Part shown: positions 3,269-64,000 of the stretch, piece after piece
Numbering within the stretch: the stretch's first letter is position 1
How the letters are laid out: each line of letters opens with the position of its first letter
Assembly (NCBI GenBank): GCA_028697555.1
Contig: JAQVEX010000003.1
Location: 12,450-76,449, forward strand
Direction: 5' to 3'
Source of the DNA: Lentimicrobiaceae bacterium
Lineage (GTDB): Bacteria; Bacteroidota; Bacteroidia; Bacteroidales; UBA4417
DNA: 64,000 nucleotides
Program-made: the position numbers and the translations under genes
The notes under the pieces: generated by a model
Database searches by the model: none
Told to the model about the DNA's origin: nothing
Seen by the model: only the letters and a program-made list of their open reading frames with translations

Positions 3269-4294
3269 TCAAATTTTATATTTTTTAATTACATCAATTG
3301 TTCTATCAATCATATTATCATCGATACCTAAATGTGTTACCATTCTGATATTATTGTAACCCATGTGCATGGTCAGTATGCCGTCGTTCTTTAATTGACT
3401 GACATAATTATCGGCGTCTACTTTTGGGTCTAATTTAAAAAGAACAATATTGGTTTCAACTTTTGCTACGCTTTGCACATAGTTGAGTTTTTCTAATTCG
3501 GTGCTTAAAAGTTTAGCTCTTCTATGGTCGTCTTTCAGACGTAAAATATTATTGTCGAGTGCATAAATACAGGCTGCAGCCAAATAGCCTGACTGCCTCA
3601 TTCCTCCACCAAACATCTTTCGGTAGCGTCTTGCAGTATTTATAAATTTGCTATCTCCCATTAGCACCGAACCCACAGGAGCTCCCAATCCTTTCGACAT
3701 GCACACCGAAATACTGTCGAACAAATTTCCATAGTCTTCGGTTGTTTGCTCGGTTTCAACCAAAGCGTTGAACAGTCTGGCTCCGTCTAAGTGATATTTT
3801 AAATTATGCTTTTTGCATATTTTACCTATTTCCACCAATTTATTAAAATCGTAGATACTGCCACCGCCTTTATTCATGGTATTTTCGACAGACACTAAAG
3901 CTGTTGGCGGACGATGAACATCGTCGGATGGATTTATGTGATTTTCTACATCATCGGGGTCGAGATGACCTCTATCGCCGGATAACAAGCAAGTTGACAA
4001 GCCAGAATGAAAAGCCGGTCCTCCAGACTCATAGTAATATATATGCGACAACTTATGGCAAATAATCTCTTGTCCGGGTTGCGTATGAGTTTTTATAGCA
4101 ACCTGATTAGCCATAGTTCCCGAAGGAAAATACAGAGCACTTTCCTTATTAAACATTTTAGCGATTTTTTCTTCCAATCGCTTGGTTGTCGGGTCGCCTC
4201 CATATACATCGTCGCCAACCTGTGCCTGCATCATGTATTGGAGCATTTCGGGTGTTGGTTTTGTAACTGTATCGCTGAGTAAATCTACTATCAT
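3269..4294 (-). CDS. ltaE: low-specificity L-threonine aldolase (PLP-dependent)
   Basis: 341 aa. Motifs DLLSDTVTKPT, GDDVYGGDPT, FPSGTMANQ and the PLP-lysine region CMSKGLGAPVGS match the beta-eliminating lyase/threonine aldolase family. Confidence 0.85.
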   Translation of the reverse strand: MIVDLLSDTVTKPTPEMLQYMMQAQVGDDVYGGDPTTKRLEEKIAKMFNKESALYFPSGTMANQVAIKTHTQPGQEIICHKLSHIYYYESGGPAFHSGLSTCLLSGDRGHLDPDDVENHINPSDDVHRPPTALVSVENTMNKGGGSIYDFNKLVEIGKICKKHNLKYHLDGARLFNALVETEQTTEDYGNLFDSISVCMSKGLGAPVGSVLMGDSKFINTARRYRKMFGGGMRQSGYLAAACIYALDNNILRLKDDHRRAKLLSTELEKLNYVQSVAKVETNIVLFKLDPKVDADNYVSQLKNDGILTMHMGYNNIRMVTHLGIDDNMIDRTIDVIKKYKI

Positions 4295-4299
4295 ATATA

Positions 4300-5490
4300 T
4301 TATTTTTTAAAATCTTTATCGTATGCTTTTTTAAGACTATTAAGAGCTTTTTTCAGATGCGATTTCGGACAACCAATATTCAAACGCATAAAGCCTTCGC
4401 CTCCACTGCCGAACATAATTCCAGTATTGAGTCCCATATCGGCTTTTTTCAAAAAGAAATGATTTAATCTTTTGTCGCTTAAATTAAGCTCTCGACAGTC
4501 TAACCACATTAAAAAAGTAGATTCGGGGATTACAGGTTTTATTTTTGGCGTATATTCCGACATAAATTCTACAACATAATCGACGTTTTTTTGCAGGTAA
4601 CTCATCAAATCATCAACATATTGGTAGCCATTCTTGTACGCCTCTTTAAGAGCTACATTGCCAAAAATATTTCCGTTGGAAATATGATATTTTTGAATTT
4701 GATTTTCAAATTTACTTCTTAGCTCAGGATTAGGAATAACATAAACCGAAGAAGCCAATCCCGACACATTAAAAGTTTTGCTCGGTGCGGTAAACATAAC
4801 TGTTTGTTGCGCAACCTCTTCCGATAAAGTGAGAATAGGTGTATACTTATATTTTTTGTAAACCAAATCGCAGTGAATATCGTCCGACACAATGATTACA
4901 TTGTATTTGAGAGCTATATCAGTCATTTTGGTCAGTTCTTCAACAGTCCATACGTTCCCTCCAGGGTTGTGCGGATTTGACAGAATAAAAAGTTTAACAC
5001 CTTGTTTAATCTGCTCTTCAAAGTCATCGAAATCTATTTGAAGTCTGCTGCCGTCAAAATTGAGTTTACTTTGCACCAAGACTCTGTTATGGTCGGTTAC
5101 TGCGTTAAAAAACGGGAAATAAACCGGCGGCTGAACCAAAATTTTGTCTCCTTCGTTTGTATAAGCAAGTACAGCAATATTAACAGCCGGAACGACTCCA
5201 GGCGTGAATCCGACAGTGGTTGAGCAAATTTCTAACTGATGCCTATTTTTAAACCACGAAATAAAAGAATCGAAATGATTGGGATTTCTGTAATCGTAAC
5301 CAAAAACCGAGTGTTTAACTCTGTCTTTCAATGCTTTGGTTATAAAATTAGGGGTTTTAAAATCCATATCGGCGACCCACATAGCGTATTTGGCATCGTG
5401 TCCCAAAACTTGCTTCATAGCATCGTATTTCAAGCTACCGCTACCACGACGATTAATTACTTTATCGAAATTATTTTTTACATTTTTCAT
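4300..5490 (-). CDS. MalY/PatB family C-S lyase (class I/II aminotransferase fold)
   Basis: 396 aa. RRGSGSLKYD near the N-terminus, SNPHNPGG, and the PLP-lysine motif PSKTFNVSGL. Confidence 0.8.
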   Translation of the reverse strand: MKNVKNNFDKVINRRGSGSLKYDAMKQVLGHDAKYAMWVADMDFKTPNFITKALKDRVKHSVFGYDYRNPNHFDSFISWFKNRHQLEICSTTVGFTPGVVPAVNIAVLAYTNEGDKILVQPPVYFPFFNAVTDHNRVLVQSKLNFDGSRLQIDFDDFEEQIKQGVKLFILSNPHNPGGNVWTVEELTKMTDIALKYNVIIVSDDIHCDLVYKKYKYTPILTLSEEVAQQTVMFTAPSKTFNVSGLASSVYVIPNPELRSKFENQIQKYHISNGNIFGNVALKEAYKNGYQYVDDLMSYLQKNVDYVVEFMSEYTPKIKPVIPESTFLMWLDCRELNLSDKRLNHFFLKKADMGLNTGIMFGSGGEGFMRLNIGCPKSHLKKALNSLKKAYDKDFKK

Positions 5491-5574
5491 GTAACAAAAT
5501 TAATCTAATTCAAATAAACTTACGAAATTTGCAGACGAATTTATTATTAAAAATTAAAAAAACACTAAAACACA

Positions 5575-6492
5575 ATGGCACACTTCAAAGAAAAGGTGTT
5601 CTCAAAAAGCTGGTTTATCAGTTATTCGCTCATAGTCATCGGTGCTTTTATTTTGGCATCAGGTTTTGTCTTTTTTATTACACCTTATAAAATAGTACCC
5701 GGCGGTTCTTACGGTATATCAATTGTTATACATCACGTAACAAAAGGTGTATTTTCGTGGGCTCCCAACGGTTTGCCTGTCGGTATGATGGCTCTTATGA
5801 TTGACATTCCGCTAACCATCATTGGGGTAAGGGTTTTAGGTCCAAGATTTGGAATTAAAACTGTAGTAGGATTTGTTTGTACGGCAATATTTGTCGATAC
5901 TCTCACATTTTTCTACGGAGAAAGTCCATTGGTGGAAGGTGACGCTTTGCTTTCGTCTATTTTTGGCGGATTGCTGATAGGGATTGGCTTAGGAATTATT
6001 TTTAAAAGTAAAGCTACTTCGGGCGGAACGGATATTGTGGCTATGATTTTGGCAAAATATTCAAAACTGACTGTAGGTCAATTGCTTATTTATGTCGATT
6101 CGGTTATTGTTCTATTAGGATTGGTTGTTTTTGCCGATTGGAAAATTCCGCTTTACTCGTTGGTTGTTATTTTTATTACAGGTAAAACTATTGATATTGT
6201 GAGCGAAGGAACAAACTTCGACCGTACTATGTTTATTATATCGAAAGAGTCGGAACTTATTCGCAACTTTATTATTGAAAAGTTGGAACGCGGTGGGACT
6301 TATATTCCCGGAACAGGTATGTACCAAGGCGATGAAAGAACGATAATATTTGTTGTTGTTAACCGCAGAGAAATGGCTTTGTTGGAAGAATACATACACA
6401 GCGTTGACCCCGAAGCGTTTATTACCATAATTGAAGCAAGCGAAATATACGGCGACGGCTTTAGGTCGCTTACAAAAAAACTATCAGATTAA
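5575..6492 (+). CDS. YitT family membrane protein (DUF2179 C-terminal domain)
   Basis: 305 aa. Multi-pass hydrophobic N-terminal part (PYKIVPGGSYGIS, ATSGGTDIV) plus a soluble C-terminal GGTYIPGTGMY...VVNRRE domain. Confidence 0.85.
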   Translation: MAHFKEKVFSKSWFISYSLIVIGAFILASGFVFFITPYKIVPGGSYGISIVIHHVTKGVFSWAPNGLPVGMMALMIDIPLTIIGVRVLGPRFGIKTVVGFVCTAIFVDTLTFFYGESPLVEGDALLSSIFGGLLIGIGLGIIFKSKATSGGTDIVAMILAKYSKLTVGQLLIYVDSVIVLLGLVVFADWKIPLYSLVVIFITGKTIDIVSEGTNFDRTMFIISKESELIRNFIIEKLERGGTYIPGTGMYQGDERTIIFVVVNRREMALLEEYIHSVDPEAFITIIEASEIYGDGFRSLTKKLSD

Positions 6493-7420: not shown

Positions 7421-7565
7421 TGGGTGCGGGTTAGTTTTGAGTTTTGAGTTTTGAGTTCCGAGTTCTGAGTTCCGAGTTCCGAGTTCCGAGTCTCCAAACT
7501 CAATACTCTCGACTCAAAACTGACAACTCACCGACCACCGACCACCAACCACCAATCACCCAAAA
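7421..7565. repeat. mosaic heptamer-array intergenic element, copy A (type II, long imperfect hairpin)
   Basis: Fills the whole spacer between the convergent yitT-like and obg genes. Order: TGGGTGCGGGTTAG, then 8 tandem TTYYGAG heptamers (7435-7490), an A/C-rich complement (ACTCAATACTCTCGACTCAAAACTGAC), then 5 tandem CACCRAC heptamers (7529-7563). The outermost TGGGTG pairs with CACCCA. Confidence 0.9.
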
Positions 7566-10486: not shown

Positions 10487-10642
10487 GCGTGTTGCGGGGT
10501 ACGAGTTGCGGGTTAGTTTTGTCCCGAAATTTCGGGACAAAACTGACAACTCACCGACCACCAACCACCAACGACCGATCACTCATCACTAATCACCAAA
10601 AGCTAACGGCTAACGGCTAACGGCTAACAGCCAAAAGCTAAT
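10487..10642. repeat. mosaic heptamer-array intergenic element, copy B (type II)
   Basis: Order: GCGTGTTGCGGGGTACGAGTTGCGGGTTAG, a perfect 30-nt palindrome AGTTTTGTCCCGAAATTTCGGGACAAAACT (10515-10544), a CACCGAC/CACCAAC/CATCACT array, then a GCTAACG x3-4 array. Lies in the divergent hpt/purE spacer. Confidence 0.9.
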
Positions 10643-35572: not shown

Positions 35573-35775
35573 TGGTACGGGTTACGGGTTGCGGGGTGCG
35601 GGGTGCGGGTTAGTCCCGAAGTTTCGGAAGAGTTACGAGTTATGAGTCGGGAGTTTTGAGTTAGGAGTTAGGAGTTACGAATATTTTTCCTGACTCAGAA
35701 CTCAAAACTCAGAACTAATTCACTAACCACTCATCACCCATCACCCATCACCCATCACCAACCACCGACCACCAC
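35573..35775. repeat. mosaic heptamer-array intergenic element, copy D (type II, long imperfect hairpin)
   Basis: Order: GGTTACG/GGTTGCG/GGGTGCG heptamers, GGGTTAG, hairpin TCCCGAAGTTTCGGA, GAGTTAYG-type units, a loop, complementary CTCAGAACTCAAAACTCAGAAC, then CATCACC x3 and ACCACCGACCACC. Begins right after the stop of the upstream gene. Confidence 0.9.
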
Positions 35776-45258: not shown

Positions 45259-45600
45259 TTGGTGAATGGTGGTGGGTGAATGGTGGTGGGTGAATGGTGG
45301 TGAGTGATGGGTGGTGAGTGATGGGTGGTGAGTGATGGGTGGTGAGTGATGGGTGGTGAGTGATGGGTGGTGAGTGATGGGTGGTGAGTGGTGGCTTATA
45401 TCAATTATCAATTATCAATTATCAATTATCAATTATCAATGAACAATGAACCCCGAAACTTCGGGACTAATTACTAATTGTTAATTGCTAATTAAAAATT
45501 ACCACGTAACACGCAACACGTAACCCGCAACACGCAACACGCAACACGCAACCCGCAACCCGAACCCGCCAACAGCTAACAGCTAAAGGCTAAAAGCTGC
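45259..45600. repeat. mosaic heptamer-array intergenic element, copy E (type I, largest, ~340 bp)
   Basis: 3 x GGTGAATGGTGGTG plus 6 x AGTGATGGGTGGTG (nine contiguous 14-mers, 45261-45386). 5 x ATCAATT plus ATCAATG plus AACAATG (45400-45448). Hairpin CCCGAAACTTCGGG (45452-45465). CTAATTA/CTAATTG/TTAATTG units. ACACGCA/ACCCGCA heptamers (45502-45570). AACAGCT/AAAGGCT units (45571-45598). Confidence 0.95.
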
Positions 45601-49607: not shown

Positions 49608-49780
49608 CTTGGCTGTTAGCTGTTAGCTCTTAGCCTTTAGCTGTTGGCAATGAGCAATGAGCAATGAGCAATGAGCAATGAACACCGAAACTTCGGGGTT
49701 AATTATTAATTGATAATTGTTAATTGAAAATTGCCACGCACCTCGAAACCCGCAACCCGCAACCCGTACCAACCACCACC
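49608..49780. repeat. mosaic heptamer-array intergenic element, copy F (type I)
   Basis: Order: GCTGTTA/GCTCTTA units, 5 x GCAATGA (49647-49681), hairpin CCGAAACTTCGG (49685-49696), TTAATTA/TTAATTG/ATAATTG units, CCACGCACC, CCGCAAC x2-3, then ACCAACCACCACC. Fills the whole spacer between the convergent hypothetical gene and udk. Confidence 0.95.
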
Positions 49781-59232: not shown

Positions 59233-59372
59233 TGGTTGGTGGTCGGGGTTGGGGTTAGTTCTGAGTTATGAGTTATGAGTTACGAGTTACGAGTTCTGAG
59301 TGTCAAAACTCCAGACTCAAAACTCGAAACTCGAAACTCACACGCAACACACAACTAATAACGCTTTATAAC
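59233..59372. repeat. mosaic heptamer-array intergenic element, copy G (type II, long imperfect hairpin)
   Basis: Order: TGGTTGGTGGTCGGGGTTGGGGTTAG, GAGTTAT/GAGTTAC/GAGTTCT heptamers, complementary CTCAAAACTCGAAACTCGAAACTC, then CACGCAACACACAAC. Fills the spacer between the convergent NahK-like and M20 genes. Confidence 0.9.
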
Positions 59373-61547: not shown

Positions 61548-62768
61548 CTACTTTTGAATATATCTGTTTTCAATTTCAACTTTCATTCCTTTAGACCCTA
61601 TGGCAGTGCCAATGCGCTCTTTGAGTAATGCAGGAGATGGATTTATAGCCAATACCTTTTTCTCATAGTCAAGCAAAAACATTGTCGGTACAATACTTAC
61701 ACCATATTTTTGCAAATATTCCGACTGTACTCCTCTGCTGTCGATTGTCTGTATCCAATAAGCTTTATCTTGCTGTATTGCTTCTTTCCATTTTTGAATA
61801 TCATTATCTAAAGATACTGAAAATATTTGAACTTCTTTGTTTAGTTCGGCGTGCAAGGTTGTAAGTTGCTTATTTATCATCCGGCTGTTGTTATCGTATA
61901 TGCTCCAAAAATAAACTATTACCAACTTATCTTCAATGCTGTACAAACTCATTGTTTGGTCTGACATATCCGGCAGTTCTATGTTAGGAACCTTGTCGCC
62001 TAATTTCAAAACATTTTCAGCTCTAACATTTCTCGATTTTTCAAAATCTATAAGACGTTGAGAATAACCTTTTACCAACTCATTTTCAGGATAGCACAAC
62101 ATTAAACTGTCGGAAAGAGCTTTCAACAGTTCAAAATCGTTTGCTACGTTGAGCATAGGACGATTCGCAAAACGATTGTTGACAACCAATAAGGAAGACA
62201 ATGACTTGATATTGTTTTTAACATAATCTCTCGCTTCTTGATTTTGGCTTAAAATCACCTCGTTGAAAGATTTATCGATTAAAGGTTTTAGAGTTTCAAA
62301 ATCGTCAGTGCCCTTTATTTCGCGGTACGCGTGTGTAAGCGAATCTAAAGCGGCATAATTATTATAAGCAGTTTGGTTAAACAATAAATAATTCTCAGAA
62401 TCAGGCGAACCGCTTATTTTACAAGTATTGACTACATCCTCAGCATTAGCAGAAAAATCAACCTTTTGATTAGGTTTTAAAACCAACATCACAAACTGAT
62501 TGTTACCAAAGTTTAGCCTATAAATATTGTCGGCATCGTGCAAAATGTTGAAATAAAAGTTTCCCTCCGAATCAGTTTTTGTAGAATCGATTTTTACTAT
62601 ATTGTCCTCTATAATTTGCATAAGCACAACCATAGAGTTTGAAGCATTGGACAAATTGCCCCGAATTTCGGTAATATTGTCTTTTTTGTTGCAGCCTGAA
62701 ATTATTGTTACAAAGCATAACAACATGGAAATAAGTAGTAAGAAAAATTTATTGTATAGTCGATTCAT
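61548..62768 (-). CDS. TlpA/AhpC-like thioredoxin-fold lipoprotein with DUF4369-like N-domain; lacks the CXXC active site
   Basis: 406 aa. Lipobox (IISGC). The C-terminal thioredoxin-like domain aligns to the TlpA pattern, but FWSIYDNNS replaces FWASWCxPC. Confidence 0.7.
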   Translation of the reverse strand: MNRLYNKFFLLLISMLLCFVTIISGCNKKDNITEIRGNLSNASNSMVVLMQIIEDNIVKIDSTKTDSEGNFYFNILHDADNIYRLNFGNNQFVMLVLKPNQKVDFSANAEDVVNTCKISGSPDSENYLLFNQTAYNNYAALDSLTHAYREIKGTDDFETLKPLIDKSFNEVILSQNQEARDYVKNNIKSLSSLLVVNNRFANRPMLNVANDFELLKALSDSLMLCYPENELVKGYSQRLIDFEKSRNVRAENVLKLGDKVPNIELPDMSDQTMSLYSIEDKLVIVYFWSIYDNNSRMINKQLTTLHAELNKEVQIFSVSLDNDIQKWKEAIQQDKAYWIQTIDSRGVQSEYLQKYGVSIVPTMFLLDYEKKVLAINPSPALLKERIGTAIGSKGMKVEIENRYIQK

Positions 62769-63017
62769 ATTCTTAAAAATTGTGGGTACAAATATAATTA
62801 ATCTATTTAAATATAACTTTATTTAGCAACTGTAAAATAGTTTAATTATTCTTAAACGAAACAGAAAGAAGCTTATTGTTAAATAATTGTATTAACTGGA
62901 AAATTTGCTATTAGCCGATTGTTTATAAAATTTCGTTGTTCGGTAAATATTAATTACAAAAACATATATCTCTACAGCTTCCTATTATTAGTCTTTTGTA
63001 TTTTTATTTTCCAAGAT

Positions 63018-63204
63018 GGTTCGGTGCTACGCACCTTTAATATAACATGTACAATTTATGCTATAAATTGTTCGGTGCTAACGCACCTTTGTTACAAAAG
63101 CAACATCTCTGTTTTCAAAAGTATTTAACTAAAGCCGTGGAACGGCGACCCATTTGTAACTACGTAATAATAAATATAAACAAGGTGCGTAGCGCCGAAC
63201 AATT
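63018..63204. repeat. three copies (two direct, one inverted) of a ~21-24 nt hairpin-containing repeat, GTTCGGTGCTACGCACCTT
   Basis: 63018-63038 GGTTCGGTGCTACGCACCTTT. 63067-63090 ATTGTTCGGTGCTAACGCACCTTT. 63181-63204 CAAGGTGCGTAGCGCCGAACAATT, the reverse complement of copy 2 with 2 mismatches and 1 indel. Each unit contains GGTGC-N3/4-GCACC. Confidence 0.85.
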
Positions 63205-63341
63205 AAAGATTTTTGCGAAAATTTATCTGTCAAAAAAAATCAAAAAATGTATTTATATATAACCGACGGTTTCCTTATTTTAAGATTTTATCAGACTTTA
63301 ATGGTAAAATTTATAAATTTGCACTCAAAGATTGATTTTTA

Positions 63342-64000
63342 TGGATGATATTAAAATTGTTTCCGTTTCATATACAAATACGCTTCCCTTTATATACGGT
63401 ATAGAAAATTCAGGTTTCATAAAAAATTATGCCTTGCAGTTGTTGCCTCCTTCGGGATGTGCCAAAGCTCTTAAAAACAACGAAGCCGATATAGGTTTAG
63501 TTCCGGTGGGTGCATTAAGCGATTTTGAAAAATATTTTATTCACACCGACTACTGCATAGGAGCTGTAAACTACGTCAAAACAGTTCTGTTAGTCAGCAA
63601 TACTCCGATTGATAAAATCGAAACCATTTATTTGGATAGTCATAGCCGAACATCGGTTAAGCTGTGTCGGGTGCTAGCAAAAAATCACTGGAAAATAAAT
63701 CCCAAGTGGAAAGATTTTGTTTACGATAAAGATAATTTCGCTTTGCAACCCAACGAAGCCGCCGTCTTGATTGGCGACAAAACTTTTGAAGTTTTTGATA
63801 AATACAAGTACGTTTTAGATTTGGCAAATCAGTGGTACAATTTTACTTCACTTCCATTTGTTTTTGCTTTGTGGATTTCTGCCAAAGAAATAAAAAAAGA
63901 AATTATCGACAAATTAAACTCAGCTCTGTGTTACGGTATTAACAGCATTGACGATTGTATCGATAATGCCAAAAATTTAATTATTACCAGGGAAAGGGCT
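63342..64000 (+). CDS. mqnA: chorismate dehydratase MqnA (futalosine pathway), 5' part; gene runs off the right window edge
   Basis: Not in the ORF track because it is open at the edge. Translation from the ATG at 63342 gives MDDIKIVSVSYTNTLPFIYGIENSGFIKNYALQLLPPSGCAKALKNNEADIGLVPVGAL..., the typical MqnA/DUF178 N-terminus. Confidence 0.8.

Follow-up and report, generated by a model that had tools for sequence, protein, structure and literature searches.

A probable REP-like hairpin element in the tlpA–mqnA spacer of a Lentimicrobiaceae genome and its association with a Y1 transposase gene in Bacteroidota

Results

Genes and motif copies at the locus

The analysed window, a stretch of 64,000 nucleotides (64 kb), ends with two divergently oriented genes. 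The gene on the minus strand (61548–62768; an ORF whose start may lie 36 nt downstream, at 62732) encodes a TlpA-family thiol-disulfide oxidoreductase, and its product is 100% identical to the NCBI entry 'TlpA disulfide reductase family protein [Lentimicrobiaceae bacterium]' (P0121). On the plus strand, mqnA, which serves menaquinone synthesis via futalosine, begins with an ATG at 63341 and runs past the window end (63341–64000); its ortholog in locus L064 of the sister species matches PF02621 (VitK2_biosynth). The spacer between the two genes contains three copies of a motif that a preliminary description had reported, and both reading of the sequence and a mismatch search of the 64 kb confirm them. 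Copy 1 (63019–63037, plus strand) reads GTTCGGTGCTACGCACCTT, copy 2 (63070–63089, plus strand) reads GTTCGGTGCTAACGCACCTT with one additional A in the loop, and copy 3 lies inverted on the minus strand (63182–63200) and reads AAGGTGCGTAGCGCCGAAC, with a single T>C change. No other copy is present in the 64 kb at up to three mismatches. By chance 0.03–0.07 matches would be expected in a sequence of this length, and none of 100 shuffles had two or more.

As described previously, copies 2 and 3 form an inverted repeat (pairs I6 and I7). Another pair, I1, connects 63016–63044 with 63175–63203 over 29 nt that are 83% complementary. The nested pair GTTACAAA (63091–63098) and TTTGTAAC (63153–63160), and the GC hairpin GCCGT-GGA-ACGGC at 63134–63146, are also found where they had been placed.

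A composite element of four hairpin modules

A covariance model (CM R1) built from 51 distinct modules detects exactly four modules in the 64-kb window, all in the tlpA–mqnA spacer, and the next best match within the 64 kb has an E value of 0.27. The module is about 30 nt long and consists of an 8-nt box CTACAAAT (optionally preceded by T), about 5 nt (GGTTC), a stem-loop and TT. Its stem comprises 5 bp and is G+C-rich, and the loop has 3–4 nt, mostly TAC. Module A, at the outer left (63014–63038, plus strand; 27.3 bits, E 4e-5), is an exact match to the motif and reads agATG-GTTC-GGTGC-TAC-GCACC-TTT, with the hairpin at 63023–63035 and without a CTAC box. The inner module B (63059–63090, plus strand; 37.8 bits, E 9e-8) is boxed and reads tg-CTATAAAT-TGTTC-GGTGC-TAAC-GCACC-TTT, where the box occupies 63061–63068 and the hairpin 63074–63087. 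Module C, also inner but inverted (63131–63161, minus strand; 35.9 bits, E 3e-7), reads ag-TTACAAAT-GGGTC-GCCGT-TCC-ACGGC-TTT on the minus strand, with the hairpin at 63134–63146 and the box at 63152–63159. Its stem is compensated, GCCGT/ACGGC standing in place of GGTGC/GCACC, and the same variant stem occurs in the paralogs L016, L023 and L058. Module D, at the outer right and inverted (63181–63204, minus strand; 15.1 bits, E 0.06), reads AATT-GTTC-GGCGC-TAC-GCACC-TTG on the minus strand and matches the Y-degenerate motif exactly. The C·A mismatch in its stem on the minus strand is a G·T wobble on the plus strand, and the module pairs with module A in the inverted repeat I1 and in the predicted folds.

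The modules make up an element of about 195 bp (~63015–63210) with A and B on the plus strand, followed by C and D on the minus strand, and with the outer ends ATGGTTCGG and CCGAACaATTAAA. Similarity ends at these boundaries, ~63015 and ~63210, in an alignment of six copies, one from the window and five (an ortholog and four paralogs) from the sister genome. The window element is an intact four-module unit and not a remnant. The true fourth copy of the motif is the GCCG hairpin together with the TTTGTAAC box (module C), which the preliminary description missed; nor did it recognise copy 1 as part of the unit that holds copies 2 and 3, module A being the partner of module D. A partial fourth copy had been assigned to 62936–62944 (plus strand), outside the element. 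The 9-mer TTGTTCGGT is found there, but it is not kept in the sister-species ortholog L030, which has TTGTCCAAT, and CM R1 detects nothing at this position at E ≤ 10. Judged by this comparison, the 9-mer is probably a chance occurrence and not part of the element.

Folding and covariation of the stems

The segment of about 200 nt folds far better than shuffled sequences, with z scores for the two strands of −6.1 and −5.7 as RNA, and of −5.7 and −6.1 as DNA. In the predicted fold of single-stranded DNA or RNA, a stem of 19 bp between A and D closes the structure, and B and C form local hairpins inside it. Across the family described below, a variety of stems is found behind the same box (GGTGC, GCAAC, GCTGC, GCCGT, GCCGC and GGGAC), and loci that were retrieved independently through the Y1 gene add GCTCC, GGGGC and GCGGC. 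Pairing is retained in 98.5% of 593 stem cells, with 92 double-sided changes (119 distinct model-aligned modules), values that are to be read in light of the alignments used, of which the seed set (A3) was preselected for pairing and the second (A4) was fitted to the model. As for the controls, none of 500 shuffles reached the 98.5% level, and slid controls gave at most 59%. Such varied stems behind an invariant box are hard to explain otherwise and argue for the hairpin as a selected feature.

A dispersed extragenic family in Bacteroidota

An exact-pattern scan (19–20 nt) of one genome per species, covering 185,579 species and 596 Gb, returned 63 loci. Fifty-five of these lie in Bacteroidota assemblies, usually several per genome, so the motif is not confined to the present locus. 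The hosts are Paludibacter and other Bacteroidales, Lentimicrobiaceae, Saprospiraceae and Chitinophagales assemblies. The remaining eight loci are single matches in or beside coding sequence in unrelated phyla, and their number is consistent with chance for a 19-nt pattern. No match was obtained in 2.9 million viral contigs, and a phage link is unsupported. In the 463 kb of retrieved loci CM R1 identifies 181 modules; copy numbers given here refer to 8-kb loci fetched by the exact 19–20-nt pattern and are not a whole-genome census.

The modules recur in the layout '+ + − −', often '+ + −', as in the window element. An outer module without box is followed about 50 nt downstream by a boxed inner module to give a half-element, and two half-elements in inverted orientation constitute the full unit. 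Elsewhere, 37 '+…−' clusters were found, and in these units no target-site duplication (TSD) is seen, i.e., no direct repeat of at least 3 nt exceeds expectation at any offset. The copies are strongly extragenic; ORFs of at least 120 aa span 79% of the loci, yet 170 of 176 copies fall outside them. The genes flanking the clusters are convergent in 18 cases, co-directional in 26 and divergent in 9, and the divergent setting of the window element represents the rarest class.

Tandem arrays with a period of 50–52 bp occur at four loci (L029, L031, L014 and L069), and in three of them (L029, L014 and L069) the segments between the hairpins are repeated as well. Short-read contigs of close relatives end at module edges, as would be expected of a repeat. 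An all-against-all comparison of the retrieved loci revealed no polymorphism between filled and empty sites.

The window copy in related genomes

The element is conserved in relatives. The equivalent tlpA–mqnA spacer of the sister species (JAPXLB01; L030/L064) contains a four-module element that is about 94% conserved, from which it follows that the insertion is older than the split and was vertically inherited. The whole spacer is about 94–95% identical in the sister species, against about 89% over a region of 6.5 kb, and given this conservation the spacer region may have some host function. Besides the Y1 gene (L023), the sister genome harbours seven or more further module loci, and paralogs of the full A-B-C-D unit in this genome show 77–88% identity. 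In a third lineage (L066/L067), with genes that are 95% identical, part of the spacer before the contig end is taken up by a different sequence with heptamer arrays, which indicates that the spacer is plastic. A more distant relative (L068; 31% identity) keeps the downstream synteny, has a different upstream gene and a spacer of 150 bp without the element; it cannot be used as an empty site. A protein search for TlpA orthologues returned two close lineages and otherwise distant ones, and a metagenome scan with the TlpA-like protein for orthologous spacers yielded no confirmed relatives.

The −7 consensus of Bacteroidetes promoters is TAnnTTTG. Boxes that we take to be candidates for this promoter element are located at 62789–62796 (minus strand) for tlpA and at 63314–63321 for mqnA, both outside the element; a sigma-70 promoter scan is uninformative for Bacteroidota. 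The position of the likely core promoters outside the element fits a tolerated passenger, and the window copy is most simply regarded as such, having been vertically inherited. It occupies the middle of the divergent spacer. Any effect of the element on the expression of tlpA or mqnA would be conjectural; the hairpins may act as insulators or terminators.

A Y1 transposase gene between inverted modules

At four loci (L022, L023, L033 and L053) an ORF of 153 aa fills the gap of about 500 bp between inverted module doublets. This Y1 transposase gene was found by tblastn at ten motif loci, each in a different genome. It lies between inverted modules in these four and in L062, L063, L035 and L050, carries an in-frame stop in L039 and is truncated in L009. 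In L020 the modules are present at the syntenic site and the Y1 gene is gone. Some lineages are accordingly losing the gene or have lost it. By tblastn the 64-kb window has no copy; of the two related species, it is in the sister species (L023 and L074) that the gene was seen.

Bacteroidales and Lentimicrobiaceae consistently show the order '[B−][A−] gene [A+][B+]', where the outer module lies 25–50 nt ahead of the Y1 ATG and 6–25 nt past the stop codon. The orientation of the modules relative to the gene depends on lineage, and is '− − gene + +' in some and '+ + + gene − − −' in L070. Loci fetched through protein identity alone (L069–L074) also bear modules adjoining the gene: L069 has 32 modules in a phased 52-bp array beside it, modules are found on both sides in L070 and upstream in L071–L073, and they are present in L074 as well. 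Among the motif loci there is one Y1 locus per genome, a count that applies to the 8-kb loci and not to whole genomes. The flanks of the gene are syntenic on both sides in L022, L039, L053, L062 and L063 at 73–94% nucleotide identity, and at the examined loci no tnpB adjoins it. In these comparisons the Y1 gene appears to behave like a resident and not like a jumping gene.

The Y1 protein matches PF01797 (Y1_Tnp) with E values of 1e-24 to 1e-27. It passes the curated model NF033573 (IS200/IS605 family transposase) with 61–72 bits against a cut-off of 55. It fails NF047646 (REP-associated tyrosine transposase), where it reaches 27.6 bits and the cut-off is 80. The closest solved relatives are the TnpA proteins of IS608 and ISDra2, with which the HUH motif and the catalytic tyrosine are aligned. 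In an alignment of 11 sequences, Asp54, His55, His57, Gln96, Tyr115, Gln119, His122 and His123 are invariant, and Trp95 is nearly so. The corresponding motifs are DHxH (D54-H55-x-H57), W95-Q96 and Y115...Q119..H122-H123. The proteins comprise 153–160 aa and keep a C-terminal tail, FREEY..LRK...E.Y.F.F. By its motifs the Y1 protein matches subclass 1.2 of Quentin et al. 2018, an assignment made from the published motif signature. That signature combines DH[IV]H, WQ and Y---Q--HH with a conserved tail at the C terminus and a length of about 148 aa (PMC6006769). Members of subclass 1.2 occur in Bacteroidetes and Cyanobacteria at 1.7 copies per genome with a paralog identity of 36%, and the subclass is given as being without REPs and without the typical IS200 terminal structures (PMC6006769).

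Discussion

REP/RAYT is the textbook example of a domesticated bacterial transposase that lives with its own population of miniature elements, and it has so far been tied to the class-2 TnpA-REP clade, mostly in Proteobacteria. We consider it likely, with good confidence, that the segment 63015–63210 represents a single member of a family of REP/REPIN-like (BIME-like) elements that is associated with a Y1 transposase in a REPtron-like manner, and whose mobilisation we infer. The family is probably both non-autonomous and mobile. As such, the window feature is an ordinary family copy, and the interest lies in the link to the Y1 gene at the level of the family.

The REPtron concept and the activity of TnpA-REP were described by Ton-Hoang et al. 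(PMC3333891). As in the REP/BIME/REPIN and RAYT systems of Enterobacteria, Pseudomonas, Stenotrophomonas and other bacteria (PMC3333891, PMC3116915, PMC3733652), the modules are short, multi-copy extragenic hairpins, and as in REPINs and BIMEs, inverted module pairs fold into a larger hairpin and occur in clusters and arrays. Several stem variants coexist within one genome and TSDs are missing, both of which are features of REPtrons. Also shared with REPtrons is an HUH/Y1 gene with the same repeats inverted around it; the gene may likewise be confined to one vertically inherited locus, and the decay or loss of this gene in L039, L009 and L020 has a parallel in E. coli strains. There are also clear differences. 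The transposase of REPtrons is a class 2 TnpA-REP, whereas the enzyme found here belongs to class 1 and is IS200-like, of subclass 1.2 by its motifs. The hairpin has only 5 bp, unlike classical REPs, and the unit consists of four modules with a regular phasing of 50–52 nt. Classical REPs carry a GTAG directly against the 5' foot of the hairpin, whereas the box CTACAAAT is located 5 nt 5' of the stem. With the CTAC(AAAT) box 5' of the hairpin, GTAG is read on the opposite strand and there follows the hairpin on its 3' side. Finally, the host phylum is Bacteroidota, where GTAG-tagged REPs went unreported (PMC3733652). As it does not reach the cut-off of the curated model, the Y1 protein is not a canonical RAYT. 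The system is REPtron-like in function and architecture, yet that score and the lack of a GTAG at the foot of the hairpin place it outside the canonical RAYT family, and the inverted flanks and fixed locus of the gene place it outside ordinary IS200/IS605.

The main alternative is that the modules derive from an ordinary, currently mobile insertion sequence of IS200/IS605 type, as its ends or as what decay has left of it (PATE or MITE derivatives), and are not parts of a domesticated system. The Y1 protein would suit such an element well, as it is recognised by the curated IS200/IS605 model and rejected by that for RAYTs, and has the IS608 and ISDra2 enzymes as its best solved relatives. The absence of TSDs fits IS200/IS605 elements and their PATE derivatives equally well, and in IS200/IS605 short hairpins are the recognition elements on single-stranded DNA, to which the hairpin modules correspond. 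However, the hairpins of the left and right ends (LE and RE) of IS200/IS605 elements are on the same strand, without terminal inverted repeats, whereas the modules that flank the Y1 gene are inverted. IS200/IS605 elements are multi-copy and horizontally mobile, whereas the Y1 gene is fixed, syntenic in five diverged genomes and apparently present at a single locus among the motif loci of each genome. The lack of an adjoining tnpB, gene-less units that far outnumber the gene, and the low copy number and low paralog identity published for subclass 1.2 (PMC6006769) also speak against this alternative, which we regard as improbable.

Another view is that the segment is a structured RNA specific to this locus, either a small RNA or a structure that serves the divergent tlpA-like and mqnA genes in cis, as a regulatory leader or as an insulator. 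Both strands fold strongly (z about −6), the spacer is better conserved in the sister species than the surrounding 6.5 kb, and three short hairpins with T-runs were flagged as terminator-like. However, both strands fold equally, as would an inverted DNA repeat, and because of this the folding by itself is no argument for RNA. At dozens of loci, spread over several families and many genomes, the element has unrelated genes as its neighbours. Rfam 15 gave no match at gathering score, either across the full window or at seven loci of the family, and in the spacer there is no relevant family and no match at E ≤ 10 save miRNA noise. The syntenic spacer of the distant L068 has no element, and the likely −7 boxes of both genes, presuming the consensus given above, are outside it. 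A locus-specific RNA is therefore very unlikely, and neither the small RNA nor the cis-regulatory structure for tlpA and mqnA that the preliminary description had offered finds support as the primary identity of the segment.

We assign a still lower probability, close to negligible, to the modules being sites on duplex DNA, operators or iterons, at which a global regulator or a nucleoid protein binds, with a coincidental Y1 association. The core GGTGC-N3-GCACC is palindromic, and a phasing of about 50 bp is equivalent to roughly five helical turns. On the other hand, stems that vary with compensation behind an invariant box, in at least eight types with pairing kept, imply a folded single strand and not a duplex operator. 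The loop length of 3 or 4 nt, and the tight Y1 linkage at loci retrieved without the motif, also disagree with an operator.

Two further candidates were rejected. A CRISPR array does not apply, since the 'spacers' between the hairpins are themselves repeats, and the neighbour is a Y1 transposase gene, with no cas genes seen. A classical DDE-type MITE has inverted ends as found here, but no TSD accompanies any of the 37 elements. Of the MITE-like remnant proposed previously, the dispersed extragenic inverted-repeat family thus stands, whereas a classical MITE with terminal inverted repeats and TSDs does not, and nor does the status as a remnant.

Within Bacteroidota, the modules can also be compared with BrickBuilt, a MITE of Porphyromonas gingivalis that is likewise an intergenic composite repeat, with tandem sub-repeats and small inverted ends (PMC4596501). 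BrickBuilt consists of a 23-nt minisatellite without spacers between leader and tail subunits (PMC4596501). It does not have the architecture of hairpin modules or a Y1 link, and no sequence relation to the modules was seen. Searches of the literature for the motif strings, and for REP or Y1 in Bacteroidetes, returned nothing further; their coverage is incomplete, and an earlier description is possible.

Returning to the REP-like family, a mechanism can be proposed by analogy with the TnpA proteins of IS200/IS605 (IS608 and ISDra2) and with E. coli TnpA-REP. When the unit becomes single-stranded, it would fold into a long hairpin that A and D close and from which B and C project as side hairpins. 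On single-stranded DNA, e.g., on the lagging-strand template, these module hairpins would be recognised and bound by the Y1 protein, which would cleave beside them, whereby units may be excised, copied, reinserted or recombined. No target duplication would be produced, and the outcome would be dispersed inverted units and phased arrays of 50–52 bp. As a speculation, CTAC in the box, and often also in the loop (C-TAC), could take the role of the GTAG/TTAC tetranucleotides in cleavage and recognition.

The Y1 proteins resemble subclass 1.2 (PMC6006769) in motifs, in the length of about 150 aa, in the C-terminal tail, in low copy number and in their Bacteroidetes hosts. Unlike the published description of that subclass as lacking REPs, all Y1 loci examined are flanked by cognate modules that are also dispersed in the genome. 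It is conceivable, although we would put the chances slightly below even, that modules tagged with CTACAAAT are the unrecognised cognate repeats of class-1 subclass 1.2 Y1 proteins, and that they represent a second, independent REPtron-like domestication across Bacteroidota. The spread under such a reading covers Bacteroidales, Lentimicrobiaceae, Saprospirales and Chitinophagales. If it is true, a Y1 subclass that was described as an orphan gains a partner relevant to its function, and Bacteroidota joins the phyla that have GTAG/CTAC-tagged REP-like repeats.

The modules follow a grammar of their own, with box, 5-bp stem and phasing of 50–52 nt, and gene-side arrays of up to 32 modules. A 5-bp hairpin with an 8-nt box would offer a simple and compact substrate for the biochemistry of Y1 proteins that read single-stranded DNA. 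In practical terms, the elements account for assembly breaks in these metagenome-assembled genomes, and any search for structured RNAs between the genes of Bacteroidota should mask them.

Spacer conservation and the heptamer arrays

Across the entire spacer between the divergent tlpA-like gene and mqnA, the window (62769-63340) and the orthologous locus L030 of the sister Lentimicrobiaceae species (5300-5856) are about 94-95% identical. Over the 6.5 kb around it, identity between these two species is about 89%; the intergenic region is better conserved than the genes. A second repeat family, the heptamer tandem arrays, is dispersed over several sites of the 64-kb window (7433-7491, 10602-10641, 35574-35774, 45268-45574, 49647-49733, and 59257-59339). 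In the sister genome (L014, around 3560-3600 and its repeats), similar arrays (GGCTGTT, GGCTAAT, CCAACAG and others) directly abut the hairpin modules, the repeat units of about 30 nt that make up the window element, and in a relative with 95% identity (L066, 1-130) heptamer arrays take the place of part of the spacer upstream of tlpA. Because of this adjacency and replacement, the two repeat families may not be wholly independent.

Module arrays and the Y1 transposase gene in other genomes

The most extensive array is found in L069 (2298-3949), where 32 modules with the stem GCTCC/GGAGC form one 1.7-kb block with a strict 52-bp period, the first 8 modules in plus and the next 24 in minus orientation. 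The start codon of the Y1 gene, which encodes the IS200-like HUH/Y1 transposase, lies 50 nt past the end of this block. In Saprospirales contigs (L070, 1-8024; L071-L073, 506-7429), the Y1 gene and its module arrays separate hsdS from hsdR within a type I restriction-modification operon, and hsdS is broken into fragments in L070. The Y1 gene has decayed or been lost in some lineages: it carries an in-frame stop at codon 107 in L039 (2884-3342, minus strand), is reduced to its C-terminal 65 residues in L009 (3779-3973), and is absent from the syntenic site in L020 (2803-3133), where modules are present. In the sister genome, the Y1 gene is preceded by a tRNA gene (L023, 1612-1683) at a distance of about 480 nt.

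An identical 23-nt sequence, TTCCGTCAAGCCGGAATGTACCA, which is itself a small hairpin, occupies the loop of three different modules in two Paludibacter genomes (L032, 1682-1704; L063, 7496-7518; L062, 6585-6607). The insertion context is GGTGC^...^TACGCACC, and the insert may hint that the CTAC of the loop was the target of a site-specific event.

Effect on assemblies

Short-read (Logan) contigs from several samples end exactly at module edges, as seen at the starts of L065 and L066/L067 and at the end of L074; the elements thus cause assemblies from these taxa to break up.
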